31,913 nucleotides of DNA from a virus. Made by a program: the position numbers and the translations under genes. The stretch's first letter is position 1, and the number at the start of each line of letters is the position of its first letter. Below the pieces are notes generated by a model that did no database searches, was not told where the DNA came from, and saw only the letters and a list, made by a program, of their open reading frames with translations. This document shows, piece by piece, positions 605 through 31,913 of the stretch. Location: positions 149,411 through 181,323 of the IMG/VR virus record IMGVR_UViG_3300045988_119030; one strand, written 5' to 3'.

Positions 605-2392
605 TCAGTAATTTGCAATCATTGTTTTAAAATCTTTAGAATTAAAAATTTCTCTCATTGGTTCAAGAATACATTTTTCAACCAAATATTTTCTATTTAA
701 GATATTATTAAAATCTTCATTAGTATATTCATAATTATATTCTTTTAAAATATTAATTATTTCATCTTTAGAGTATTTTCTACTTTTTACATAAGAATAT
801 AAATTAAGATACTTTTTAAATTTTTCATAATAAGGACTTACAGTAATATCTACTGCGAATTGATTATCTTCAAGAAGATAGTCTGCGGAATCTTCAAATA
901 AATTTTTTACGAAAATTTCATTAGGAATTGTTTGAATATCTTTATTATTATAAGAAACCAATAAATCTCCTTGAGATAAAAGACCTAAAAATCTATCTGT
1001 TAATATATCGTCCTCAATTAAATCTACAAAATTTAAACAGTCTTTGATTATATTATAAACTCCATCGCCGTTATTTAAATAATTTTGAATATGTTTACAT
1101 TTATTTTTAGTAAGAATTGCACTTTCTTTAAGGGTTTTTAAAGTTTTACATTTATCTAAAAAAGAATACCAAAAGCCGTCAAGATTATTTAAATAAATAT
1201 CAATAGCTACAACCTTATCACTTAAAGATACATCAGCATAATAAATTTCAGCTTCAATAGATTCCGCGATTTTTTTATTCCATTCAAAAATTTCTTCATT
1301 CGAATAATTTTTATCTTCATAAGATAAAAATACATTTTTATTAATAGTATTTACATATTTCTTATGAAAAAAAATATTCTCAGGAAATGTATTTAAATTA
1401 GTAATACAAGATCCACCCATGATAATAATATCGTTATTATCTAATGTTTCATAAGGAAGAATAACAGAAAACTTTCTATCATCATAAGAAAAGCAATTTT
1501 GATACATTTCAGTTAAAATACGTTCAACCGCAATTTCAAATACAGGAAAAGCACCAAAATTAACTGAGATAGTTCCATTTTTATAATTAATAAGAATTCC
1601 CATTACTACTGGAACATTAAACGTTCTTGACATATCAATAATATAATATTTATTGCCATGGGATTCAATAGCATTAATAATCTTAATTAACTTTTCATCA
1701 GTAATACTATTAATATCAACAAAATAATAATCCTTATTAGGATTAGTATAAAAATGACTAACAACATAATGTTCAAAAATTTCTGAAAGTCCTTGATTTA
1801 ATGCCTCAATTATAGTATTACCAGCAGCCATACCTGAACTTCCCTGATAACGCTGAATGAGACGAGGATCTAAATACTTTACATCTTTTTCATTATTTAA
1901 ATTAATATAAGGAATACCAAAAAATTTATTATTATACATAGAAGTAAGACAATCTTTAATTATATAATTAGTTTCTTCGTCAAAAGAATTAAAAAACTTA
2001 TACATTAAAGAATCTTTTCCACCAAGGGCTTCTTTAAAGTTTACTTCTTTTTCATTTCTAAATAATGAATAATTATAATTTTTTTGGTTTACTTTGATTT
2101 TTTCATTACACAAAAAAGGATTACATAAATAATGTAATCCATTGCAAAATCTTTCATACATTTCAGCATATCCAGAAGCCATAGCGAACTCTTTAGATAC
2201 TCCTTTTCCAAAAGATCTTAAAATAGAATGACCTTTATAGTATAAACGAAGAGCAAGACTCCATGTTGTAGATTGTTCTTGACGTAAAACTTCTTCTATA
2301 CAATAAAAGCCTCGATCCGCAAAGAATTGCTTAATATTATTTACTGTATCTAAAGGATTAGTTTCTTTATAATGCTGTGAATAATTATTCAT
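605..2392 (-). CDS. ycaO: YcaO-domain protein (ATP-dependent amide-backbone activating enzyme family), 595 aa, stand-alone E. coli YcaO-like size
   Basis: Hallmark YcaO motifs seen in translation: SFGKGVSKEFAMASGYAEMYERF (GKG-x-S/T...A.ASxxAExxER) and YQGSSGMAAGNTIIEALNQGLSEIFEHY (SxGxAAG...EAxxxGLxExxE). TGA stop. No in-frame TAG. Confidence 0.75.
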   Translation of the reverse strand: MNNYSQHYKETNPLDTVNNIKQFFADRGFYCIEEVLRQEQSTTWSLALRLYYKGHSILRSFGKGVSKEFAMASGYAEMYERFCNGLHYLCNPFLCNEKIKVNQKNYNYSLFRNEKEVNFKEALGGKDSLMYKFFNSFDEETNYIIKDCLTSMYNNKFFGIPYINLNNEKDVKYLDPRLIQRYQGSSGMAAGNTIIEALNQGLSEIFEHYVVSHFYTNPNKDYYFVDINSITDEKLIKIINAIESHGNKYYIIDMSRTFNVPVVMGILINYKNGTISVNFGAFPVFEIAVERILTEMYQNCFSYDDRKFSVILPYETLDNNDIIIMGGSCITNLNTFPENIFFHKKYVNTINKNVFLSYEDKNYSNEEIFEWNKKIAESIEAEIYYADVSLSDKVVAIDIYLNNLDGFWYSFLDKCKTLKTLKESAILTKNKCKHIQNYLNNGDGVYNIIKDCLNFVDLIEDDILTDRFLGLLSQGDLLVSYNNKDIQTIPNEIFVKNLFEDSADYLLEDNQFAVDITVSPYYEKFKKYLNLYSYVKSRKYSKDEIINILKEYNYEYTNEDFNNILNRKYLVEKCILEPMREIFNSKDFKTMIANY

Positions 2393-2440
2393 ATGATATT
2401 ATGCCTTTCTTTTTTCTATCATATAAATATATTACTATAT

Positions 2441-2492
2441 TTTTTTAATAAAGTCAAAAACCTACCATTTTATTTGGTAGTTTTTGACTTTA
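2441..2492 (-). promoter_or_regulatory. 16-bp near-perfect inverted repeat (AAAGTCAAAAACCTACC / GGTAGTTTTTGACTTT) directly after the stop of gene 2493..2996. It embeds a TTGACT -35-like hexamer 17 nt from TAATAT. Candidate terminator/promoter junction for ycaO
   Basis: Stem-loop read directly. Lacks a clean U-tract on either strand, so its terminator role is uncertain. Confidence 0.3.
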
Positions 2493-2996
2493 TTAAATTG
2501 AATAAAAGCAATTAGGACATAAATACTAATTATCATCTATTTTAAATAATGGAATATTACTTACTTGTAAATTACATTTAAAGCATTGTTTATTTTTATA
2601 AATTTTTGGTATAAAAATTTCTATATTTGGCTCAAATAAATTTAAAAGATTATTAGATATTTTTTGAAAGTAAATATCTTTTTCTTTATTAGTATCATTA
2701 TAATTATATTGTAAAATATATTTACATATTACTTTACAATGATTTAAATTAGTTAATTTTAATTCTTCTACTGGAATAATAATATCAGATATATTATCTA
2801 AATTTATTTTAGATTTAATTGTATATTGTATTTGAAGAATTATAGTTTTATCTTTTTTAATAATTCCTAAATTAAAGCAAACAAAAAGTATCCAATAGTC
2901 ATAAATACTATTACTGTCAAAATCAAAAGATAAAGCTCTTATTTTATCCCAAAAGATTTGTTCTGGAATTTTAAATCCGCCATTACTAAATTTCAT
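2493..2996 (-). CDS. Hypothetical protein (~167 aa) with C-terminal 4-Cys zinc ribbon (CFKC...CPNC). Contains an in-frame TAG at 2526-2528
   Basis: Track ORF 2526..2996 ends in TAG. The frame continues QYLCPNCFYSI to a TAA at 2493-2495. RBS GGAGAG before ATG 2996. Confidence 0.5.
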
Positions 2997-3154
2997 TTAA
3001 CTCTCCATTAAAACAATACTCATAATAATTATTTGTATCTTTTTCAATTTGAATACTCCGAGGATAATCTAACTCCCAAGATGTTCTTTTATTATAAAAC
3101 TATAAAAAATTTTTTACTATATCTTGTATAAATTCTTTATATTCATCGTAAGTA

Positions 3155-5212
3155 TCAATCATATAAATCATACTCTTCTTTCTCAAGATAATTTAAAAAT
3201 TGATCATGGGCAAATTGATAATATATATATCCATTAAAATAATTTAATATTGGATATATTTCTTTTTTTAAATTATCAAATGATTTAATATATTCTCCAT
3301 CTAAACAATGAAAATTAATAGTATTGTTTTTTATATCACCTATAATTTTTTTACTTAAAGGGCATAAACAATCATTATTTATTTGTTTTAAAGGATAAAT
3401 TAAATTTATTTTATATAAAATATAATAACTTGTTTTAATAAAATTTTCTATAAAATAATTATTATGTTTTGTATAAATTAAATTATCATATTCATAAAAA
3501 TATTTTATTTCATATAAAATTCTAATAATTATTGATTGTAATATTTTATTTTTTTTATCTAAATTTAAATTATAGATATAAAGAAACTGTAAAAAGAAAA
3601 TAACTATTTTTACTAAATAATCTATAGCCTCAGACAATCCCGTATGAGATATGTTACCTGGATTAGTATTTAAATCAATTATATAATTTCCAATAGTCTA
3701 ATCAATTAGTTGTCCTTCTCCATATAAATTACATAAATCAAAAAATAAACTATCTTCGCATAAACAAAAATTACTATATTTTATATTATATTTCTATAAA
3801 AAACTTCGTTTTAAAAGTAATCCAAGTTTATTATCAGGAATAATAAACTATATAAAATCATTTTTTTCGTTATTTTTTATAAAATTATAAAGAATTTCTA
3901 ATTCATTATTTATATTAAATAAATCATCTGAATCCCAAAATAAAACATATTCATTAAAAGAATTTTCTAATCCTACGTTTCGTGCGACTCCAGGTCCTTT
4001 ACGAGTAAGATTTTTAAAAAAGAAACAAGGAAAATCCGCGTTATCAAATATTTTAATAACTTTTCTCTCACAAGCTGAATTATCACTTATTAAATATATA
4101 CAACAATCTTTAATAATTGTTTGCGCTCTTAATGAATTATATAAATCAATTATCTAATTATCATTAAGGTTATAATAAGGAATAATTATATCTATTTTGC
4201 CATCAATAAATCTATTTATACATTTTTGTAAATAGTAATTATTATATCGAAAGTCAATTGGAGTTTTACCATTTAAAAATTCCTAATAATTATTTAAAAA
4301 ATCTTCTTTATTATTTATAAGTTTTAAATAAAAGTCGTAGTCTTCAAAATAAGCATTTTCCATTGATACAGTAAATTCTGATTTAATGTTATAACATTTA
4401 TGCCATAGCCAAGAAGCGGTTGGTAAAGTAGCATCACAATATTTACAAATTTTCTTAGGTGAAAATATAAAATTATGTAAATCATCTAAGCTATTTATAT
4501 CTTCTAACTACAAATAATCTTCTTCCTCTTCTGGAATATTCAAATTATATTTTTTACAATAAATATCTAAGAATGCGGAAAAAGGACAGATATATATCTT
4601 ATAATTTTTTAATGTAAAACAAGGTATTTCATGTGGACAATATTGATAATAAGCCTTTGCTGGATCAGTATCTCCATTTTCATTTACAAGCTACTAACGC
4701 ATAAATAATCGCTCTTGATGATTAAAAGCAATACCATATTCTTGGCATTCTTCAACATCTTCATAATTTGTATAATTACTATAAGCAGTTATGTCGAACA
4801 TTATATCCATATCAAGGTATTCTTTTTTATGTTTAATAATATTTTTCATATTTAATCCATTAGATAAAACTTTTAATTGAGTTTTTTCTTTTGGAAATAT
4901 TTCACGAGCTATTTTACATAATTCAAATAGTTGTGGGTGAAGAGTTGGCTCTCCACCCACAATCATAAATACTTTTATATTAGGAATTTTTTTATTAGCC
5001 ATAATAACCTAATTGCGGAAATCATTTATATCAATAAACCAAGGCGTGGCTAAAGGTGAAAAATGATTACATCCCGCGCAATTAAGATTACAATGATCTA
5101 CTACTTGTATTTCTAAGCTTACACCATCATAAACAGATTTCCAAAGACTATGTGTATATGGAGGAATCCCACGATAATCTTTATCTTTCTTTATCTGTAT
5201 ATCGTTCATCAA
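3155..5212 (-). CDS. Radical SAM enzyme (N-terminal) fused to or translationally coupled with a GT-A/family-2 glycosyltransferase domain plus a C-terminal domain of unknown function. 12 in-frame TAG codons, including a TAG-TAG pair at 4691-4696
   Basis: One frame from ATG 5212 to TGA 3155-3157 with zero TAA/TGA. It links track ORFs 5009..5212, 4694..5002 and 3155..3637. Motifs: CNLNCAGC (CX3CX2C) and GGEPTLHP (rSAM). IDIIIPYYN...SLRAQT, ARNVGLENSFNEYVLFWDSDD (GT2 Rossmann start, ARN...DxDD). Cys-rich stretch after the rSAM core. Confidence 0.6.
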
Positions 5213-5762
5213 ATTCTCCTAATATATGTGTATTATAATCAACTAATTCTCTTATTTGATTATTGCGTTCATGTAAAAAACATTGAGTACAAATTTCATT
5301 TAAATTGTTTAAAGGTTCATGGAAAAAATTGCAATAATGTTTTTCAAAATCAACATATTTACAATACTTATCGCATATTAAAATATTACTATCTTTATTA
5401 TAAATCACAGGATGATCTTCTCGTAAGCGGAAAGATAGCTGAATTTTAAACATTAAAGTTCCTTGATAAGAATATAAAAAAGTTTTATAAAATATATCTT
5501 GGACTTTACTTTCAAAAGTAAATTTCTATTTATCTGTAGTAATAAGCTCAATGCATTCTATTTCATTCTAATCTATAGCTTTAACTTGCTAATAAACCTA
5601 ATTTAGAAAAGAATAATCAATATCATTCTAATTTTTAATTATTTTTGCAAAAACTATTTCTTTTGGAAAATTTAATTGAAATATAATATCATCACATTGA
5701 CGCTCATTAAATTTAACAGATTTTAAAATTTCTTTATCTGAATTAATAAAATTAATAACCAT
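5181..5762 (-). CDS. Hypothetical small Cys-rich protein (CDKYCKY...HYCNFF...CTQCF). Possible N-terminal extension to ATG 5762 containing 6 in-frame TAGs. The core 5181..5453 is a clean ORF
   Basis: Frame from ATG 5762 runs into track ORF 5181..5453 with only TAG interruptions. The high TAG density makes the extension uncertain. Overlaps the rSAM start by 32 nt. Confidence 0.3.
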
Positions 5763-6090
5763 TTCGTTTATCAGGAATTCCTTTTAATCGATCTCCTAAG
5801 AAATATCTATATAATTCATAAGAATCAGCAATATTATCGCATAAACAATTATTATTATTTTCATTGTTATTATTATCGTTATTATTATTATTATTATTAG
5901 ATTTTTCTGCATGATCTGTAATAATTATTTTAATGAAATTATTGATAATAGTATTAATTTCTTCATTTTCACCATTATTTTCAATCCAATTTAAATAAAT
6001 AACATATAAAAGATCTCTATAATCTTCTACATTGCTATAATCAAAAGTTTCAATTAAATGATTAATTTGATTTTTCATTTCTTCAATCAT
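5752..6090 (-). CDS. Small Asn-rich protein (112 aa) with a poly-N tract and a C-terminal CLC motif. Candidate precursor peptide or accessory protein of the rSAM-SPASM enzyme
   Basis: ORF overlaps the stop of the upstream rSAM-SPASM gene (ATGATTGA coupling). Low-complexity KSNNNNNNNDNNNNENNNNCLCDN. Confidence 0.5.
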   Translation of the reverse strand: MIEEMKNQINHLIETFDYSNVEDYRDLLYVIYLNWIENNGENEEINTIINNFIKIIITDHAEKSNNNNNNNDNNNNENNNNCLCDNIADSYELYRYFLGDRLKGIPDKRNGY

Positions 6091-7489
6091 TGTAATACCC
6101 CAAATTATGGCAAAGATTTAACCAATTTTCTTTATATTTTTCATCTGGAAAATAATTTTTTTCTAAAGCAATTTTAGTTAATCCTAATTCACAATAACTT
6201 TTAACTAAAAAAGATATTCTTGTTTTATGTAATTCACAAACACTTTTAGGCGGTAAAAATAAATCTCCAGTAGCTTCGAGTGCCGCACCAAGGCAAAGTT
6301 TTAAACAAAACGGATCATAAGGACAAGTAACACATCCAACATTTAAATGAGTATTGTTTGTCTTAATTACTGTATAAAGACTTGGATTAATTGCTGTAAT
6401 TCCAATAATTTTATCATTTTCAACTTCAAATTTACCGCCAATAAATTGCTGATAAGAAGTTCTGTGGCAAGGAACTAATTCCATAGTAGCAACATATAAA
6501 CAAGTTTGATGAGAAATTGCACAAGTGTAATTTCCATCTTTCCAAGTGACAGTTGGTTGTAATGGATCATAATTGTGTAATCCAATTAAAGATCCTTCTT
6601 CCCCATCTCCTAAAAAGATATGTCGAGCTAACTTATCTAATGAACTATCATTCATTTGGAATCTAATTTCAAGCATGTGAGTTAAGAATTCAAGATAGTG
6701 ATTTAATTTTTCTTCAGTCCATTCATCATTACGAACTTCTAAGAACATGGGCTGAAATTCATCGCGAGGCCCTTTACATAATTTATATTTCTCAAATTGT
6801 TCAAGCCACCAATCATAATTTTTAATAGCGCTTTCAATATTATTTGGAGAAATCATTGGATGAATACCGCAACAGTTCTTAGAAAGAAATTGCATAATCT
6901 TATCATAATATTCAAAATCTTTATTTTCTTCTCTTACACTATCATAAGGACCATCTACAGAACAAGATAAATTTAATTCCATTTCAAGGTCAAGAAATTT
7001 TTGAAGATATTCTTCCACTTTAGCTGCTTTTTTATCATCAGCAACAAAACTAAAGTTATTGGGGAAAGCAATACGAGGATGATGATTCTTAAAAAGATTA
7101 GGATGTTCTTCAAAGAGAGCTCCATAATATTTTAAAAGTAAATCAAAAATACTAAAGCCTAAATTATCATAAAATAAATCTCCAGCAAAGAGTTCTATTT
7201 CAAGGAATAAGACTTTTCTTTCGTTAAAAATATAATCTAATATAATGTTCATATTTTTAAGAATTTTTTCATTATTTGCTCTTGTTTCAAGTGGGTATAA
7301 ATCTTTTCCGTAACGAGCAATATAACAATATTCACACTTTTGATTACATTCTGGACGAATAATAAACTCAAAAGAGCTTTCATTTATCCAATATCCTTCT
7401 TCTTTATCCCCTTGATTAAAGCAATGGTTATCAAGAAATTTTTCAAAATATTTATTATTATCTAAAATACAACCTTCACTAATATTCAT
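6083..7489 (-). CDS. Radical SAM / SPASM-domain enzyme (peptide/protein-modifying maturase class), 468 aa
   Basis: CNQKCEYC (CX3CX2C) near the N-terminus. C-terminal CAISHQTC...C and GCVTCPYDPFCLKLC (CX2CX5CX3C SPASM signature). Start overlaps the TAA of the upstream gene by 1 nt. Confidence 0.8.
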   Translation of the reverse strand: MNISEGCILDNNKYFEKFLDNHCFNQGDKEEGYWINESSFEFIIRPECNQKCEYCYIARYGKDLYPLETRANNEKILKNMNIILDYIFNERKVLFLEIELFAGDLFYDNLGFSIFDLLLKYYGALFEEHPNLFKNHHPRIAFPNNFSFVADDKKAAKVEEYLQKFLDLEMELNLSCSVDGPYDSVREENKDFEYYDKIMQFLSKNCCGIHPMISPNNIESAIKNYDWWLEQFEKYKLCKGPRDEFQPMFLEVRNDEWTEEKLNHYLEFLTHMLEIRFQMNDSSLDKLARHIFLGDGEEGSLIGLHNYDPLQPTVTWKDGNYTCAISHQTCLYVATMELVPCHRTSYQQFIGGKFEVENDKIIGITAINPSLYTVIKTNNTHLNVGCVTCPYDPFCLKLCLGAALEATGDLFLPPKSVCELHKTRISFLVKSYCELGLTKIALEKNYFPDEKYKENWLNLCHNLGYYND

Positions 7490-8991
7490 TAATTGTATAC
7501 TCCTTGTTCTGTATATCTATCGTCATCCCAACATTCTTTAGGTAATACCCAATTATTTTCTCTATCAACATAATTATATAAAGCAGAAGAAATTCTTAAA
7601 GTTCCAATGCTTCTTAATAATTCACTACCAGTAGAAACCAAATTATTATAAGTACAAGCAAGATTTTTTGTTGTAATAAAAGCTAAGTGAAGCAATTTAT
7701 TATAATCATATTTATACACTGAATTTAATTGTCCGCACTCATTTAGCATTTGATATTCATTTAAAATAGTTTGAAACATGAATGGAAAAGAAGTGGTTTT
7801 AAATAAATTATATTTATAAAACACCTTATCAATTTCTTCATCTGATGCTGTTAAAAGATTAACACAAGAATGTCCTCTTGTCATTAAGTCTTTACGGGAA
7901 AGAGTGTCAATAGTGCCATCATCTTTAATGTTGTTTGGGTTTATATCAAACATATAATTTTGACAAGATACCATAGTACCGTCCCATAAAAGCTTTAATT
8001 CACTCCAATTAGAGCCACAAAAATTATTCATAGATAATGATCTAATAACTTCTTCATTTTTATCTTTAATGCATTGTAAAGCTTCTTCAATTGTTAAAGG
8101 GCATCCTTTTTGAGTCACATATTCTCCCAAATCGCATAAACTATCTTCATAAACACTTCTATATCCAACGATTAAACTAACTGGCATTCGTGGATCATGA
8201 AAATCAGACACATCAATATTAATTAATCTTTGTAAAAAAGATTCATACTCAATACGCTCATCCACTGATCCGTCTCTTGGATGTTCTGGACAAATAGAAA
8301 CTGAAGGATTAAGCGTAATAGCTTGATTAATAACTTTTTCATTTAATTCATATCCAAAAGTATCTAATTCTTTATAATAATCATGAACTTTTTCAAGAGT
8401 ATCTAATTGATTAATGAGCATTCCAGACAATACACCATGTAATTGTATTGAAATATTTGTATGATTAAATTTAATTTTATTTAATCCCTCTATAACTGTT
8501 GAAATAGTTTGAAAAATACGTTCATTATTTGCATTTCTAATATTATTAGTAGAATAAGCTCCATCATATGAAAATTGAATTGATAAATTCACATCATCTT
8601 GAGTTGTTAATTCATCTACTCTTTTAGCAAAAGCAATTATACGTTCTGGAAAATCCATTCCATTAGTTGAAAAATCAATATTTCTAATATTAGGAAAAAA
8701 TTTAAACCAATCATCTAAATGCTCTGTAATAAGATGAAGTGTTAGTGTTGGTTCTTGACCCCAAAATCCAAAATTATCAATTATATATCTATCAAGGTCT
8801 AATCTTTTAAAAATTTTTTTTACATTTTCAAGATAAGAACCATCAGTTAAAGCTTTAATTGTATCTTGTTGTAATTTAGCAGAACAACCATTTAAACTAT
8901 TTTCTATCATGCAATACTAACAATGTAAATTACACCCACATGAAGATACGAGTGTTACTGCTCTAACATCTATATCTGTATTTTTTTTCAT
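7489..8991 (-). CDS. Radical SAM enzyme (~500 aa) whose CX3CX2C motif is split by an in-frame TAG at 8917-8919 (SSCGCNLHC-TAG-YCM). True start is ATG 8991 with RBS AAAAAGGAG
   Basis: Track ORF starts at 8910. Upstream same-frame reading gives MKKNTDIDVRAVTLVSSCGCNLHC*YCMIENS. GFWGQEPTL aligns with the GGEP motif. Confidence 0.7.
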
Positions 8992-9017
8992 AAATTCTCC
9001 TTTTTCTCTTAAAAAAT

Positions 9018-9770
9018 TTAAGATCTTGATCTTCCTGCTCCACTTCTATTCGCGCTGTTAGAAGTATAAGCCCCTCTATAGGAGCAAGGTCTATAACTGC
9101 CTCTATGAGTATCATTATTAGAGCCTCTATGGCTTGTATAATAAGTATAATTACTTGAATAATTAGAACTATTATAAGCATTATTAGAACTTCTATTAGA
9201 ACCGTTATAAGCATTATTAGAACCTCGATGAGTTCCATCATAAGCATAGTACCCATTTCTATGTGTACCATTATAACTAGCGTCATAAGCATTATTAGAA
9301 GCTCTATAACTACCATTATAGCCACCATCATAAGCATAATTAGAGGCTCTATAACTACCATCATAACTAGCGTCATAAGCATTATTAGAAGCTCTATAAC
9401 TACCATTATAACTACCATCATAAGCATTATTAGAAGCTCTATAACTACCATTATAACTACCATCATAAGCGCAAACCGCGTTTACTTCTTCAAGTTTTGT
9501 CCTAATTTGTGATAATGGAATATATCTAGTTAACTCATTTACTCTTGGGGCTGTAAAGGTGTCAAAAGTTGCTTTTGTACCAACGTAAGATACATTTCTT
9601 AAATTTTCAATTTCGTTCTTTATTGTGATAACATCTCGCGCCCCAACTCTTTGTTTAGTCTTATCAGGAATAGCAGTTCTACTTTGAGAAAATCTTGTTT
9701 GCGCTGTATTTAAGTTATCATATAAAGCACGAACATCAGCCCATGAAATTCGACTTCCTGTTCCTGCCAT
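9018..9770 (-). CDS. Tyr/Asn/Ser/Gly-rich tandem-repeat protein (250 aa): a ~95-aa N-terminal domain followed by ~15-aa repeats AYDGSYNGSYRASNN. Second gene of the operon, just upstream of the three rSAM genes
   Basis: Clean ORF, RBS AAAAAGGAG, TAA stop. Overlapping track ORFs 8963..9466 and 9228..9512 are repeat artefacts. Confidence 0.7.
   Translation of the reverse strand: MAGTGSRISWADVRALYDNLNTAQTRFSQSRTAIPDKTKQRVGARDVITIKNEIENLRNVSYVGTKATFDTFTAPRVNELTRYIPLSQIRTKLEEVNAVCAYDGSYNGSYRASNNAYDGSYNGSYRASNNAYDASYDGSYRASNYAYDGGYNGSYRASNNAYDASYNGTHRNGYYAYDGTHRGSNNAYNGSNRSSNNAYNSSNYSSNYTYYTSHRGSNNDTHRGSYRPCSYRGAYTSNSANRSGAGRSRS
9111..9470. repeat. Tandem direct repeats (45-bp unit, four perfect or near-perfect copies at 9291-9470, degenerate 30/45-bp copies upstream) encoding the repeat tail of the protein above
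   Basis: Exact 45-bp duplication ATTATTAGAAGCTCTATAACTACCATTATAACTACCATCATAAGC at 9381-9425 and 9426-9470. Confidence 0.8.
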
Positions 9771-22741: not shown

Positions 22742-23332
22742 TTAATGAACTGAATGAGCATCGCCCATGTAATAAATAGTTTCACCTACGTCTGTGATTT
22801 CACCACAAACGGTAATGTAAGAACCTTTCTTGGCATCCTTAATGAAATCGTAAACATCAGAGCCCTTGTCCATACTCCAATGGATATTATCTAAGAGAGT
22901 AAAATCGTCAGGATCAGATACAATGGTGAAGTATTTACCATCACTATCAACAGTGTCAAGATAACCTGATACCTGAATATACTTACCAGTATACTCTTCC
23001 TCAGCTTTGATAGGATAATCTTCTACCATATCAATCATCTTAGAAAGAGATTCGGATGAATATTCAGCGGTTTCCTGCTCATCGGTCTCTTCGCCTGAAT
23101 CAACCGAACTCTGAGACGAGGCTCCCGCACTTTCCACAATCGGAGTGCGGTATACAGTAGGTTCAGGATCGGGATTCCTAATGACATAATCAATCCCCGT
23201 AAAAATGATAAGCACAAGGAGAATATGGAACCAAGTCTTATCGTAGAAAGGAACCTTTACATTGCCTCCACAAAACGGACAAACTTTTGACTTATCAGAA
23301 ATGGGCTGACCGCAATGTTTACAAATAATCAT
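22742..23332 (-). CDS. Membrane protein with an N-terminal zinc ribbon (CKHCG...CPFCG), one TM helix, an acidic linker and a C-terminal beta-rich domain
   Basis: Motifs and hydrophobic segment seen in the translation. Confidence 0.65.
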   Translation of the reverse strand: MIICKHCGQPISDKSKVCPFCGGNVKVPFYDKTWFHILLVLIIFTGIDYVIRNPDPEPTVYRTPIVESAGASSQSSVDSGEETDEQETAEYSSESLSKMIDMVEDYPIKAEEEYTGKYIQVSGYLDTVDSDGKYFTIVSDPDDFTLLDNIHWSMDKGSDVYDFIKDAKKGSYITVCGEITDVGETIYYMGDAHSVH

Positions 23333-24044: not shown

Positions 24045-24215
24045 TTAAGCATAAAAGACTGACTGAATGAAGCCGGCAAACAGGCAAAGCAACATACCCA
24101 TACCGCAGTAATAATACTTCTCATTGAGAGACATAGTATCATCATCCAGTAGATCCATATACATAAAGCCGAAAAATACTAATATAATAAATAGCATAAT
24201 AATCATTTCTCCCAT
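24045..24215 (-). CDS. Small membrane protein (~56 aa)
   Basis: Start ATG 24215 after RBS GAGGAGG. Overlaps the end of the phosphoesterase gene by 13 nt. Confidence 0.35.
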   Translation of the reverse strand: MGEMIIMLFIILVFFGFMYMDLLDDDTMSLNEKYYYCGMGMLLCLFAGFIQSVFYA

Positions 24216-24943
24216 ACCTTTTTACCTCCTCGCTTCTGCTTTCTCTTGGTCGCGGTGTCGATTGTTTTTCTGTGGACGCTCCCGATTTTCGCAGTCGGAC
24301 CATTTTTCATGAACTGATTCAAGTTCAAAGGGGCGGGACCAAACACATCCACACAAACATTCTTGTGATAGATGTCCGTCTCTTTATAATTGTGGTCGTG
24401 GCCATGAAGATTGAGAGCCCAGTCCTGCTTAATCGGTTCGTGAGAAAGCATAAGTTTCTCACCAATAAGGAGCGCACCATCATACACTTCGTCAAAAAGA
24501 CCGTTATCCGCGGAAACCTCCCAATATTCAAAGGGAGTGTGGAAATCAAATCCCGAATCAATAGAATATTTACAATCAGGATAAAGACGCTTCATTTCCA
24601 TGAGCGCTTCGTCCTTTTGGTAGTAATCCATAGAGAATTTCTTCTTGACGATTTTGCGCTTATAGTTTTCAGATCCCGCATCATGGTTGCCCTTGATGAG
24701 AACCTTATAACCGGCGCGCAGTTTCCGCACATAGGAGATATTGCCTACATCACCAAGATGAATTAATAGATCGCTTCGACCGCACTTAGAATTAATTATT
24801 TTAACAATTTCTTCGTCGGAAGGACGATTATGAATTCCCTGATGAAGATCTTCGTCTCCAAAATGAGTATCACTAATAACCCAACAAGTTTGTAGATTTT
24901 TCCATCTATCTAAAAAACTTTCATAGACACCAGGTAAATTCAT
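24203..24943 (-). CDS. Calcineurin-like metallophosphoesterase (phage Ser/Thr phosphatase-like, 246 aa) with a C-terminal Lys/Arg tail
   Basis: Motifs DTHFG, GDVGN, GNHD and HGHDH. Confidence 0.75.
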   Translation of the reverse strand: MNLPGVYESFLDRWKNLQTCWVISDTHFGDEDLHQGIHNRPSDEEIVKIINSKCGRSDLLIHLGDVGNISYVRKLRAGYKVLIKGNHDAGSENYKRKIVKKKFSMDYYQKDEALMEMKRLYPDCKYSIDSGFDFHTPFEYWEVSADNGLFDEVYDGALLIGEKLMLSHEPIKQDWALNLHGHDHNYKETDIYHKNVCVDVFGPAPLNLNQFMKNGPTAKIGSVHRKTIDTATKRKQKRGGKKVWEK

Positions 24944-24955
24944 AATTATTACTCC

Positions 24956-25885
24956 TTAACAAATTCTAAAAATTGTTGTATCCAATTTCAAATCATTAAT
25001 TGATAATTTATCTAAATGAAAATATGGGATTCTAATTAACGGGATGTTATTTTCTTTACACCATTGATTTTTAAAAGCATCATGTTCTTTTGTTTTTTCA
25101 AACTTTTCTAATGTATTCCAACCAGTTCCAGATTGATAATGCTATATTCCATCAAATTCAATTAAATAAGAATTATCAATATAAAAATCAAATTTAGCTT
25201 TATGGTTAGTATCCTAAAATTTACAATTTTCAAAAGTTTTTTCACAAATATACTAAATATTATGTTCTTTTAATAAAGAGATAATTTTTTCCTAACCTGC
25301 TGATTGTAAACAACCACAAGATTTACTTTGTCCTTTTCTTAAAGTAGTTCCTGATACAATTTTTTGATTGCCACAAGAGCATTGGCATAACCACATAGCA
25401 GTATTATGCTAATTAGATCCACTACGTTTTAACACTGTCCATCGACCAAAAGTTTGTCCTGTTAAATCAATTGTTGTAAGTTCACCGATCTTTTTATGAA
25501 TATAACAACCACATGAAATAACGGCGCCACTTACTAAACCATCTTTACGAATACTTTTAATAGTTCCACAATCACACTAACATTTCCAATAAGTATGCCC
25601 TTTTCCTTCTGTTCTATCATATCCTAAAACTGTTAGCATACCGAATTTTTTACCTGTTAAATCTTCTAACTGTTTTAAACGTTTCTAACATCCACACGAA
25701 GTTGTATGATTTGAAGTTAAATGAGAAGCAGAGACTACTGTCTTATTACCACATTCACATTGACATAACCAATACGATCCTTTTCTTGAATATTCAACTC
25801 GATATAAAACTGTTAATTTTCCAAAATGCTAATTAGTCAAATCTTTTGCTTGTCCTACTGGAATCTATTTATAAATTTTTTCCAT
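24956..25885 (-). CDS. DNA endonuclease-like protein: three N-terminal zinc-finger repeats (FG.LTVL...W.CQC.CG...SCGC) plus a C-terminal DUF559/Vsr-like PD-(D/E)xK domain (DFYID...IEFDGIQH). Nine in-frame TAG codons
   Basis: Region has no track ORF. Frame from ATG 25885 (RBS AAAAGGAG) to TAA 24956-24958 contains only TAG interruptions. TAG occupies positions that are CAA (Gln) in the sister repeats. Confidence 0.6.
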
Positions 25886-25979
25886 AAAATCACTCCTTTT
25901 CTATTATATGTATAAATAGAAAAGGATAAAATAATAAAATTTATCCGAAGTCGCCAACCCGATTATTCAACCGGCCTCC

Positions 25980-26255
25980 TTAAAATGCGTAAGCATTAAA
26001 TTTATACATATAGAACTCGCCATCCATAAGAAGAAGTTTATCAATCTCTTCTCGATGATCGATCTTCCACCAATCAGGAGCAGGAAAAGGAAGATCGTAA
26101 TACTCGATTCGCTGAGTTTCCATAATATCTTCTTCGATTGCACCTTCGAGGAAAGCAAGATATAACTCTTCCGCTTCTGCTTCTGAAATGTTGGCGAATG
26201 TCCAAGACTTACCAGTCATTTCATCTTCGATTTTATAACAAGTAATTTCTTTCAT
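25980..26255 (-). CDS. Small acidic protein (91 aa)
   Basis: Clean ORF. Confidence 0.55.
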   Translation of the reverse strand: MKEITCYKIEDEMTGKSWTFANISEAEAEELYLAFLEGAIEEDIMETQRIEYYDLPFPAPDWWKIDHREEIDKLLLMDGEFYMYKFNAYAF

Positions 26256-26266
26256 AGTTATTCTCC

Positions 26267-26587
26267 TTACATTTCAACCGCATCAACGAAATCAATGAAA
26301 ACATCATTGGCGACCTCGTTCATCATATCGAGGTAAGAAGAAAATCTCCTTGTCCACTCGCCGGTCATTTCGCCGTGGTAAAGATACCAATCATAATCAG
26401 AATCTTTCTGAATCATTTCGAACTGACGCTCCATAAGACTATCATCGACCATATCTCGACAATATTCCATAAACATTTCCTGCATATCGGCTTCGGACGC
26501 ATTCAGGAAATAGAAATTATGGTCTCCGGCCGTATCACAAAGAATACCAATAGAATGAGTTTTAATCTTAGAATTAGAAGTAGTCAT
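26267..26587 (-). CDS. Small acidic protein (106 aa)
   Basis: Clean ORF. Confidence 0.6.
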   Translation of the reverse strand: MTTSNSKIKTHSIGILCDTAGDHNFYFLNASEADMQEMFMEYCRDMVDDSLMERQFEMIQKDSDYDWYLYHGEMTGEWTRRFSSYLDMMNEVANDVFIDFVDAVEM

Positions 26588-26620
26588 AATTTTTATTTCC
26601 TTTCTTTACTTTATATATAT

Positions 26621-26649
26621 ATTATATATTATTTTTTTAAAAATGTCAA
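26621..26649 (-). promoter_or_regulatory. Conserved promoter TTGACA-N17-TATAAT
   Basis: tgtcaa at 26644-26649 and attata at 26621-26626. Confidence 0.55.
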
Positions 26650-26680
26650 AAAAGGATTTGCGGTTTGCGCAAATCCTTTT
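26648..26680 (-). terminator. Hairpin AAAGGATTTGCG-N5-CGCAAATCCTTTT after gene 26686..26901
   Basis: Stem plus U-tract. Confidence 0.65.
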
Positions 26681-28080: not shown

Positions 28081-28530
28081 TTAAAGAATAGGTTTAAGTT
28101 TATTGCAACAATTGAAATCTCTCATACAGCCATTTTCTTCGCTGAAACAAGAACAACCATTTTGGCAAGTATTACGAATAATGTCGGGATTACGGACATT
28201 CGTGATGGCTTGCATATTTCCAACGATTTCTCGCTTTTGGATCATTTTCGGCGTGTCGGGAGAATCATTAAACGCGCAGTTCACATTTTGTTCACAATTT
28301 GCGCATGTACTAAGTTTTGCCCAACATTTATCGCAATAAGTGTTGCCTTGATCGTCGATGATCATTTGCTTATGGAAAATTGGAGTATGACATGCTTTAC
28401 AAGTGTAATATTCACCGCAAAGAAAATTATCGCAGATCGCATGATTTGGGTCAATTGTATTGCCTGTGATTTGACATAATCCGGTCGTTGGCCGGTAATA
28501 ACCGCAGTTATTACAATAAAAAGTCATCAT
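28081..28530 (-). CDS. Cys-rich protein (149 aa) with multiple CxxC pairs
   Basis: YCNNCG...CDNFLCGEYYTCKAC...CDKC...CANC read from the translation. Confidence 0.65.
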   Translation of the reverse strand: MMTFYCNNCGYYRPTTGLCQITGNTIDPNHAICDNFLCGEYYTCKACHTPIFHKQMIIDDQGNTYCDKCWAKLSTCANCEQNVNCAFNDSPDTPKMIQKREIVGNMQAITNVRNPDIIRNTCQNGCSCFSEENGCMRDFNCCNKLKPIL

Positions 28531-29261: not shown

Positions 29262-29640
29262 TATCAAAAATGGTCATTTTAAATGAAAATGGTCAAAATT
29301 TTCTGATAAATGGTTAAAATTTTCTATATTTTTGTCCGTTTTTTTCTATATTTCTGGTCAAAAATTTCTGATGAAGAGATCGGATAGCAAGTATAGAGGC
29401 GGATTAGGGCAAGGGAAACCGCATAGGTAATTTTTCATAGTTCCCTATTTTTATATAGATGTCTAAATTTTAAACAAAATAGGTAAAAATTTTAGGTAAT
29501 TTTTCATAGTTCCCTATTTTTATTTAGAATTTGTAGGTAATTTTTAATAGTTAGCGATCGGTTTGGTTAGAATTTTTAAGAAATTTTTCATAGTTGCCTT
29601 TAAAAATATACTTTGGGTAAAAATTGTTAAAATTACTATT
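29262..29640. repeat. Iteron-like direct repeats of two families: TGGTYAAAAWTTTCTGAT (3 copies) and TAGGTAATTTTTCATAGTTCCC (3-4 copies). Putative replication origin / divergent regulatory region
   Basis: Repeats read directly at about 29289, 29309, 29355 and 29424, 29493, 29534, 29581. Confidence 0.55.
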
Positions 29641-29846
29641 TTAGATTTGAAGTATATATGAAGGAGGTGAAAGTATTGTCAATAGAATAGAAAAGATTTC
29701 CTGCTAATGTAGATATGAATATATTAACTTTTTTAAATAATAAGAAGATAAATGGTGAATTATATGCTTATTTGTAGAGTTTATCTGATTATAATGTGAT
29801 TAATAAATAGCATAATATTTATAAAACTTATGTATTAAAAAAATGG

Positions 29847-30308
29847 TTGCCGATTCAAAGTAAGATGTGTCAAATGCTTGGTATTAAAAGTCCTAAAACA
29901 TTAAAAACGCATTTGAATTATTTAATTGAGCAAGGGTATATTATCGAAGAAGAAGATAGATATATATTACCTGAAATGGAGAGTATATATTTTCTTATTC
30001 CGCTACCTACATTAAGATATATAAATGATAACTGTAAAGAACATATTATAAAGATATATATTTATTTAGGATAGCGTTATAAATATGCGTTAAATAATGG
30101 AAGTTAGTATGAATTTACATTAGAGGAAATTGGAGAGCATAGTGGTATAAAAGTAAAGAATAACAGCAGGGGCTATGAGATTATTAATAATGCTTTAACA
30201 TTTTTATAGAATTCAGAATTAATTGATTATGTTAGCTTTTTTGATGGATAGACGCAGAAAAAGAAATTAACAAAATTTAGTTTTGAATATAAAAATTAGA
30301 ATAGGTAA
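29847..30308 (+). CDS. Putative DNA-binding / replication-initiator-like protein with two HTH-type segments. Five in-frame TAGs (30072, 30105, 30207, 30249, 30297). Start is TTG 29847 or ATG 29865
   Basis: Track ORF 29847..30074 ends in TAG. The frame continues to TAA 30306-30308. Flanked by iterons on both sides. HTH-like segments LGIKSPKTLKTHLNYLIEQGYI and FTLEEIGEHSGIKVKNNSRGYEIINNAL. Confidence 0.45.
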
Positions 30309-31789: not shown

Positions 31790-31913
31790 GAAAATGTTAG
31801 TAATTGTTAAAAACTAATATTGTTAAAAATAAAAAATTGCTTTGAAATTGTTAAAATTACTAAAATTGCTGGAAATTACTGAAAATTGTAGAAATTACTG
31901 AAAATTGTAGAAA
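31790..31913. repeat. Tandem direct repeats (ATTGTTAAAA x4 and GAAATTACTGAAAATTGTAGA x2) running off the window end
   Basis: Repeats read directly. May mark a genome terminus, a packaging site or a second origin. Confidence 0.5.

Follow-up and report, generated by a model that had tools for sequence, protein, structure and literature searches.

A probable free-standing homing endonuclease gene with nine in-frame TAG codons in a code-15 phage

Does a stretch of about 1 kb that lacks any standard-code open reading frame (ORF) hold a gene, and, if so, how did that gene come to be there? This question was raised by positions 24956-25885 of a 31,913-nt stretch of viral DNA (IMG/VR record IMGVR_UViG_3300045988_119030, positions 149,411 to 181,323), the whole of which is called the window here. 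Coordinates are those of the window unless a relative is named, and L001-L025 denote loci or contigs of relatives. A previous inspection of the letters alone (the sequence-only reading) had proposed a hidden gene, read through TAG, for a protein with three repeats and a C-terminal nuclease motif. Our analysis indicates that this is likely a free-standing homing endonuclease gene of a phage that reads TAG as glutamine (code 15); in this explanation, Cys-rich repeats are joined to a Vsr-like nuclease, and homing is combined with translational gating.

A gene read through nine TAG codons

No standard-code ORF of at least 60 amino acids (aa) was found on either strand between 24943 and 25967, in agreement with the empty stretch that had first drawn attention, and the plus strand of 24956-25885 was crowded with stops. 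The reverse complement contained a single 309-codon frame running from ATG (25885-25883) to TAA (24958-24956). The endonuclease coding sequence (24956..25885; 309 codons plus TAA) thus lies on the minus strand, which the sequence-only reading had left unstated; its count of nine TAGs, length of 309 aa, and TAA stop were reproduced exactly. The in-frame TAGs are codons 7, 19, 67, 103, 159, 198, 211, 224, and 248 (25865-25867, 25829-25831, 25685-25687, 25577-25579, 25409-25411, 25292-25294, 25253-25255, 25214-25216, and 25142-25144, respectively), and no in-frame TAA or TGA precedes the terminal TAA. Because TAA and TGA together occur at a rate of approximately 0.061 per codon in the six frames of the window, a run of 309 codons free of both would arise by chance with a probability of approximately 4e-9. 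The ribosome-binding site (RBS) that had been claimed was located as AAAGGAG at 25893-25899, 7 nt 5' of the ATG.

A metagenomic protein collection contained 5677 homologues, among them full-length proteins of 309 aa with identities of 97, 79, and 75%, and orthologues 62-97% identical were present in related phages of 160-197 kb. None of five orthologue DNAs gave the database protein under table 11, and their in-frame TAGs numbered 9, 4, 4, 5, and 5. When six orthologues were aligned by codon, 16 columns contained TAG, CAA was present in another orthologue in 8 of these 16, and CAA was by far the most frequent codon opposite TAG.

A frame with nine standard-code stops, at a place with no standard-code ORF, could be a dead endonuclease gene that had accumulated nonsense mutations. 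However, all nine stops were TAG, with zero TAA, TGA, or frameshifts in 309 codons; TAG positions differed in part between orthologues and were exchanged with CAA; the catalytic and Cys columns were invariant; and TAG was also found inside other genes of the same genomes. The pairwise ratio of nonsynonymous to synonymous substitution rates (dN/dS) among orthologues was 0.15-0.26 at a saturating dS of 1.1-1.7, which excludes a pseudogene. This alternative is effectively refuted already, and we give it practically no chance. The endonuclease gene is real and under selection, and TAG in it stands for glutamine; the hidden gene was thus borne out by the dN/dS values and the TAG/CAA exchanges, and the case illustrates how a coding sequence is overlooked by standard-code annotation in recoded phages.

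The decisive evidence for glutamine is the comparison of codons among orthologues. In an alignment of 73 homologues, the TAG248 column held Q in 71, the TAG19 column Q in 49 and K in 18, and the TAG103 column Q in 37 and K in 20; part of these Qs may be TAGs translated with code 15, and the counts are not fully independent evidence. The internal repeats of the protein had been taken as an alignment that identifies TAG as Gln, which held weakly: codon 103 stood opposite Q in both other repeats, whereas codon 19 stood opposite Q in one and K in the other, and the remaining TAGs were uninformative.

The genome carrying the gene is that of a phage of approximately 190 kb that reads TAG as glutamine. 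Four long ORFs of the window were visible only with TAG as sense, and most other genes were TAG-free. Besides the endonuclease gene, these were a radical S-adenosylmethionine (radical-SAM)/GT2 fusion (3155-5242, minus strand; 10 TAGs), which gave clean Pfam hits with TAG read as Q, a 193-aa ORF (5181-5762, minus strand; 5 TAGs), and a 216-aa helix-turn-helix (HTH) protein (29658-30308, plus strand; 8 TAGs) with weak HTH/LexA-like hits. An in-frame TAG was present in 30 of the 128 genes of related loci, where every gene called under code 15 ended at TAA or TGA, a result that agrees with recoding but is circular. When 12 kb of the window was compared by megablast with the phages in GenBank, no match was found.

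A 190.6-kb ENA contig (ERZ27260930, k119_3975; 190,642 bp) encodes a 595-aa YcaO protein identical to that of the window, and its tRNA array starts about 4 kb past the left end of the window. In L017, the part of the window's own genome that was covered, the array comprised at least 13 tRNA genes (L017 16158-21743) and continued beyond the stretch examined; an unusual tRNA-like gene, whose anticodon loop has 6 nt, was seen at L017 16158-16228. A 60-nt stretch of the array was shared exactly with five IMG/VR contigs, three of which carried tRNA(CUA) in the stretch examined, located between tRNA-Val and tRNA-Tyr, and an identical suppressor sequence was present in four relatives found through the phosphoesterase gene beside the endonuclease gene (contigs of L011, L012, L014, and L015). 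The contigs or loci with tRNA(CUA) were L019, L021, L022, L024, and L025, of which L022, a fifth contig beside the four just named, shared part of the array. The tRNA was 90 nt long with a 17-nt extra variable region in L019 (7965-8054) and L021 (3369-3458) and had a 73-nt form in L022 (6282-6354). A degenerate suppressor-tRNA pattern was matched by 70 mostly unrelated contigs, and the two closest relatives of the window were not among them. The suppressor was unrelated to the adjacent tRNA-Tyr, had its 1-72 position unpaired, and carried G73; an unpaired 1-72 and G73 are identity features of tRNA-Gln.

The same data bear on a second alternative, in which TAG would encode another amino acid (e.g., Tyr, Lys, or Glu) or be read inefficiently, giving little or no full-length protein. 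At other TAG columns, distant homologues favored E (198 and 7), Y (67), and K (159), the extra region of the L019 and L021 suppressor is unusual, and nine TAGs would multiply any reading loss. On the other side are the CAA codons opposite TAG in half of the orthologue columns, the prevalence of Q at columns 248, 19, and 103, and a suppressor unlike its neighboring tRNA-Tyr and with a Gln-like acceptor end; furthermore, proteomics in other gut phages showed that TAG was Gln (PMC9523058). We consider a meaning other than efficiently read glutamine to be very improbable.

Cys-rich repeats and a predicted Vsr-like nuclease domain

The three repeats of about 60 aa noticed in the sequence-only reading were recovered by repeat alignment. 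They are tandem and Cys-rich, occupy residues 13-198 (25292..25849, minus strand; R1 25670-25849, R2 25475-25669, R3 25292-25474), and share the motif DLTG..FG.LTVL ... W.CQC.CG ... L..G...SCGC. Each has five Cys residues that were invariant or near-invariant in the 73 homologues, the CxCxCG and SCGC motifs being invariant, and each is predicted to form three beta-strands and a short helix. An AlphaFold2 model of the 97%-identical orthologue P0001, based on the 73-sequence alignment, had a mean predicted local distance difference test (pLDDT) score of 90.2 and placed CxC at a beta-hairpin and SCGC directly before the helix. This predicted arrangement suits a treble-clef-like metal site, and one full-length structural neighbor in BFVD, a protein of Listeria phage P70, is annotated as a treble-clef zinc finger. 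The repeats possibly bind zinc, as their Cys pattern and the secondary structure predicted for them suggest a zinc finger, and they are presumed to be the DNA-recognition modules.

No Pfam model matched the repeat, and a Foldseek search of the repeat region against the PDB gave only weak triple-Tudor hits to SETDB1 (best 1.8e-3; none at E <= 0.001). Among the top 120 homologues, the number of repeat motifs per protein ranged from 1 to 8 and was mostly 3 or 4. With more than 5600 homologues, the repeat array is widespread in phages, and it is missing from Pfam; if each repeat were to read a few base pairs, which is hypothetical, such arrays might interest builders of programmable nucleases.

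The C-terminal part (aa 199-309; 24959..25291, minus strand) is a domain of the Vsr-like or EDxHD-like PD-(D/E)xK type by its predicted fold. The C-terminal motif proposed previously was present as FDFYID...LIEFDGIQH, and the catalytic-type residues D233, E243, D245, H249, D269, and K272 were invariant in the 73 homologues. The order and spacing of D233, E243, D245, H249, and D269 fit D51, H64, H69, and D97 of Vsr when compared by eye, without superposition. RAP domains and TnsA were also listed for this domain. The earlier DUF559/Vsr label held for the Vsr-like fold but not for DUF559, since the sequence was nearer to DUF2726, with both below threshold: the endonuclease scored 15.2-17.8 bits with DUF2726 against a cut-off of 24.7, and, of 25 homologous domains, 23 matched DUF2726 and 2 matched DUF559 at E <= 0.1.

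The homing-endonuclease-like architecture that had been suggested gained support from matches of the C-terminal domain to phrog_9084 ('homing endonuclease', 1.2e-25) and phrog_7140 ('intron encoded nuclease', 9.6e-18), as well as from BFVD annotations. Full-length neighbors in Bacillus phage Eldridge, Staphylococcus phage MCE-2014, and Enterococcus phage EFP01 are annotated as homing endonucleases, and one in Lactobacillus phage LpeD as a group I intron protein; a homologous stretch of Bacillus phage Mawwa is covered by features for a 'putative group I intron protein' and for the terminase large subunit. The best hidden Markov model (HMM) matches in PHROG were 374 (2.6e-60) and 559 (1.1e-29), both labeled 'HNH endonuclease'. 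Neither an HNH motif nor an HNH Pfam hit was found in the endonuclease, and the label fits it poorly; what appears to define PHROG 374 and 559 is the Cys-rich repeat, which is fused to different nucleases.

The insertion site and its chimeric flank

The endonuclease gene is free-standing, because no intron model matched and it sits between two complete genes, a 91-aa ORF upstream and a Metallophos phosphoesterase gene downstream. Rfam detected no intron in the window, nor in 24600-26300 at E <= 1; the search for an intron or intein around the gene, to which the sequence-only reading had pointed, was therefore negative, and an intron-encoded endonuclease was rejected. Homing endonuclease genes as a class need not reside in an intron or intein.

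Ten IMG/VR relatives (L006-L015; contigs of 97-197 kb) were found via the phosphoesterase gene. The orthologue was present in the window and in L001-L007, with L006 and L007 carrying a 97%-identical copy directly 5' of the phosphoesterase gene. Seven loci (L008-L011 and L013-L015) had the site without the orthologue, and five of them (L009, L010, L011, L013, and L014) had no gene of the endonuclease family within 4 kb. Three loci carried paralogues: L012 had a 38%-identical one at the same site (3075-3965), L008 one 2.3 kb 5' (1044-1739; insertion at approximately 28094-28173 of the window), and L015 one downstream (4912-5844; between 24270 and 24206 of the window). Related genomes each carry several paralogues, spread over different intergenic positions; in-frame TAGs are present in all four of those tabulated, in L002 (11743-12546), L003 (15162-16250 and 16464-17348), and L004 (12988-13875).

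The junction could be read directly from these alleles. Alleles of both kinds, with and without the endonuclease gene, occur in IMG dataset 3300045988. The seven endonuclease-less loci read TTTTAAGGAGGATATAAATG, L011 and L015 differing by one to two spacer bases, and in them the 91-aa ORF has its stop overlapping the phosphoesterase RBS. In the window, TTTTAAGGAGG ends at 25975; next come a leader of 89 nt, the endonuclease gene, and then the phosphoesterase gene, preceded by a new RBS. The leader (25886..25974, minus strand) is found only in endonuclease-carrying genomes and starts right after an orphaned RBS, AAGGAGG (25975-25981), which serves the phosphoesterase gene in endonuclease-less genomes. 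The 91-aa ORF (25980..26255, minus strand) is TAG-free, is kept with and without the endonuclease gene, and has its stop 5 nt from the insertion point. Upstream homology of 86-93% to the endonuclease-less loci stops exactly at 25975-25976 (at approximately 26263 for L010), and downstream homology returns only at approximately 24755.

The diverged part downstream comprises the 5' end of the Metallophos gene, about 190 nt (24755..24943, minus strand). Its nt 1-180 were approximately 50% identical to endonuclease-less alleles, compared with approximately 90% or more from about nt 190 onward, and 70-78% identical to the distant endonuclease-carrying L002 and L004. The remainder of the gene (24203..24754, minus strand) is TAG-free and was mostly 85-98% identical, in 60-nt windows, to endonuclease-less L009 and L014. 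At the protein level, the N-terminal 65 or so residues are of the endonuclease-carrying type and the rest of the endonuclease-lacking type. In L012, a longer diverged tract reaches about nt 470 of the Metallophos gene, beside that genome's own paralogue.

The sporadic presence anticipated by the sequence-only reading was thus found, together with a flanking tract that is putatively co-converted. Judged from sequence, this is the pattern expected of homing with co-conversion of the flank, and the target would probably lie at the junction or in the first 190 bp or so of the phosphoesterase gene. Loss of the gene by deletion would not leave a diverged flank. We propose that, in a mixed infection, the enzyme would cut the endonuclease-less allele at or near the 5' end of the Metallophos gene, and that repair from the endonuclease-carrying genome would copy in the endonuclease gene together with about 190 nt of donor phosphoesterase sequence. 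The outcome would be the chimeric, presumably cleavage-resistant Metallophos allele seen in the window. These loci form a clean natural before/after pair of free-standing homing, and they narrow the search for the target to approximately 200 bp.

The position of the gene would also fit a domesticated or offensive nuclease, for instance one directed at the DNA of hosts or competitors, or one that works together with the Metallophos phosphoesterase. The gene lies directly 5' of Metallophos in each of four lineages with identities of only 62-75%, it is under strong purifying selection, and several BFVD neighbors are annotated 'Restriction enzyme'. However, close relatives, whose Metallophos is 81-86% identical, lack the gene and show a seamless junction; the chimeric flank lies exactly beside the gene; the paralogue of L012 occupies the same site with a longer diverged tract of its own; and several paralogues occur per genome at different intergenic sites. 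Adjacency to one gene is, moreover, what site-specific homing predicts. A domesticated, offensive, or partner role is accordingly unlikely in our view, although it keeps more weight than the two alternatives discussed above.

One kilobase from the endonuclease gene, a second presence/absence polymorphism was observed. A 196-aa gene (22742-23332, minus strand), whose copy in L001 gave tRNA_anti-like and Zn-ribbon hits, is found in the window, L001, L009, L010, L011, and L014 and is precisely missing in L006, L008, L012, and L015.

Expression control and relation to known systems

Six copies of a promoter element of about 70 nt were found on the minus strand of the window, at approximately 16310, 18470, 21620, 22700, 26640, and 29200. 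The element consists of TTGA(C/T)A, a 17-nt A/T spacer, and TATAAT, is intergenic, and is 80-90% conserved in the distant L002; its copies are likely strong host-type promoters heading TAG-free operons. None lies directly 5' of the endonuclease gene. The nearest (26598..26653, minus strand), sigma-70-like with a TTGACA-type -35 and a TATAAT -10, precedes two TAG-free small ORFs and probably drives the operon to which the endonuclease gene belongs; a scan for consensus promoters and terminators around the gene did no better than on shuffled sequence. Because no copy lies directly upstream, co-transcription with the TAG-free neighbors is probable. A shared late promoter, TATAATAGAAAAGGAG, was also considered and rejected, since its 5 matches in the window (one exact) against 1.3 expected were not significant.

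All 7 endonuclease-family genes in the four loci with gene calls contained TAG, compared with 23 of the 121 remaining genes (Fisher p 2e-5), and TAG density was 13.5 versus 3.0 per 1000 codons (Fisher p 3e-5). Two other homing-type genes were also recoded: a GIY-YIG gene in L002 (5872-6477; 5 TAGs) and a LAGLIDADG gene in L003 (19548-20318; 1 TAG).

A perfect 12-bp hairpin with a 9-nt loop was found in the leader (25894..25926, minus strand), its 3' arm holding the GGA of the Shine-Dalgarno GGAG (25893-25896). Its folding energy was -13.1 kcal/mol (z -4.24), and 0 of 200 shuffles folded as well; the hairpin is predicted to sequester the endonuclease RBS. In divergent orthologues and several paralogues, each Shine-Dalgarno was likewise predicted to be buried, by hairpins of differing sequence. 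The pairing probability of the Shine-Dalgarno was 0.64-0.95 in the 7 family genes, compared with a median of 0.46 in the 121 others (p 1e-6).

Two gates may therefore act on translation. The nine TAGs would leave the mRNA untranslatable until phage tRNA(CUA) is present, and the hairpin would bury the Shine-Dalgarno. Because the gene sits in a TAG-free operon, both gates would delay or limit nuclease output. Whether, in this phage group, selfish endonuclease genes as a class are under such a double translational lock, having long evolved inside a 'genetic-code enclosure', is a more tentative proposal, which we hold to be doubtful. If it were true, the reassigned codon would time expression, after the suppressor tRNA appears, and block function in standard-code phages, and code reassignment would shape the traffic of mobile elements beyond the timing of lysis.

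Several results weigh against the explanation given here. tRNA(CUA) was found neither in the window nor among the 13 tRNAs of L017, whose array extends further. Searches of Pfam and NCBIfam gave no above-threshold match for the endonuclease. HMM searches of the full-length protein and the C-terminal domain against PDB sequences returned neither Vsr nor I-Bth0305I, only noise such as FimG and MutT, so that assignment to the Vsr-like family rests on the predicted structure. The recurrence of the gene in the same place beside Metallophos in four divergent lineages would also be compatible with a functional partnership. For the hairpin, RNAalifold on six leaders detected no common structure and no covariation, the hairpins lying in different registers, and in 78 distant IMG/VR family members, with automatically guessed starts, the median pairing was 0.57, a marginal enrichment. 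At least three in-frame TAGs were present in 16 of 79 distant IMG/VR members, and the family thus spans standard-code and recoded phages.

Elsewhere in the window, a cluster resembling those for ribosomally synthesized and post-translationally modified peptides (RiPPs) lies at 605-9770 on the minus strand. It comprises YcaO (605-2392), the radical-SAM/GT2 fusion and 193-aa ORF described above, two more proteins that gave weak matches to radical-SAM families (6083-8910), and a 250-aa protein (9018-9770). The C-terminal half of the 250-aa protein consists of about 8 tandem copies of AYDGSYNGSYRASNN, and this protein might be either a repetitive precursor or structural. A 43-bp tandem repeat, present in 2.7 copies (29488-29599), lies ahead of the HTH gene in what resembles an initiator-plus-iteron arrangement, and the L002 homologue of the HTH gene (5058-5678) has 3 TAGs. 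Tandem repeats of 19-29 bp (31819-31913) extend to the right-hand edge of the window.

The system described here is a clean example of known biology rather than a new kind of system. I-Bth0305I of Bacillus phage 0305phi8-36 defines the EDxHD family, in which an N-terminal NUMOD/HTH part is followed by a C-terminal Vsr-like domain, and the free-standing Hef enzymes of T-even phages are further members (PMC3239194). The catalytic half of the present protein is alike in predicted fold, although no sequence similarity to solved EDxHD/Vsr structures was detected with HMMs; the present gene is TAG-recoded and free-standing. Unlike I-Bth0305I, its product begins with three Cys-rich beta repeats, with no NUMOD/HTH hit in the Pfam search. 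The same repeat unit and C-terminal domain occur in PHROG 374, 559, 9084, and 7140, from phages of Staphylococcus, Bacillus, Listeria, Lactobacillus, and others, but the members from cultured phages use the standard code. Repeat-plus-nuclease proteins annotated as homing endonucleases in cultured phages, and the Vsr-like family itself, were thus already known.

The genes of the T4-like seg/mob type likewise sit between conserved genes, are sporadic, and have the adjacent gene co-converted, and hairpins that hide the RBS delay translation in T4-type systems. Those genes, however, encode GIY-YIG and HNH enzymes, without codon reassignment.

Recoding of TAG to Gln with suppressor tRNAs is established in large gut phages and is thought to delay translation of late genes (10.1101/2021.08.26.457843); proteomic proof was given by Peters et al. 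(PMC9523058), and another group of TAG-recoded phages has been described (PMC10607447). Like these, the present phage has a large genome, a tRNA array, and a minority of recoded genes, and its relatives carry a suppressor tRNA. Borges et al. reported preferential recoding of an endonuclease encoded by a group I intron in an early gene of TGA-recoded Agate phages, and proposed that in-frame stops postpone its production (10.1101/2021.08.26.457843). Our gene resembles that case as a stop-rich endonuclease gene among code-neutral genes; it differs in using TAG instead of TGA, in being free-standing, in belonging to a paralogous family that is affected as a whole, and in the additional predicted Shine-Dalgarno hairpin. 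What is added is a TAG-recoded free-standing member with its exact junction, a co-conversion breakpoint, a family-wide enrichment of TAG, and a candidate second lock at the RBS, which extends the earlier single recoded intron endonuclease to a whole free-standing family that uses TAG.

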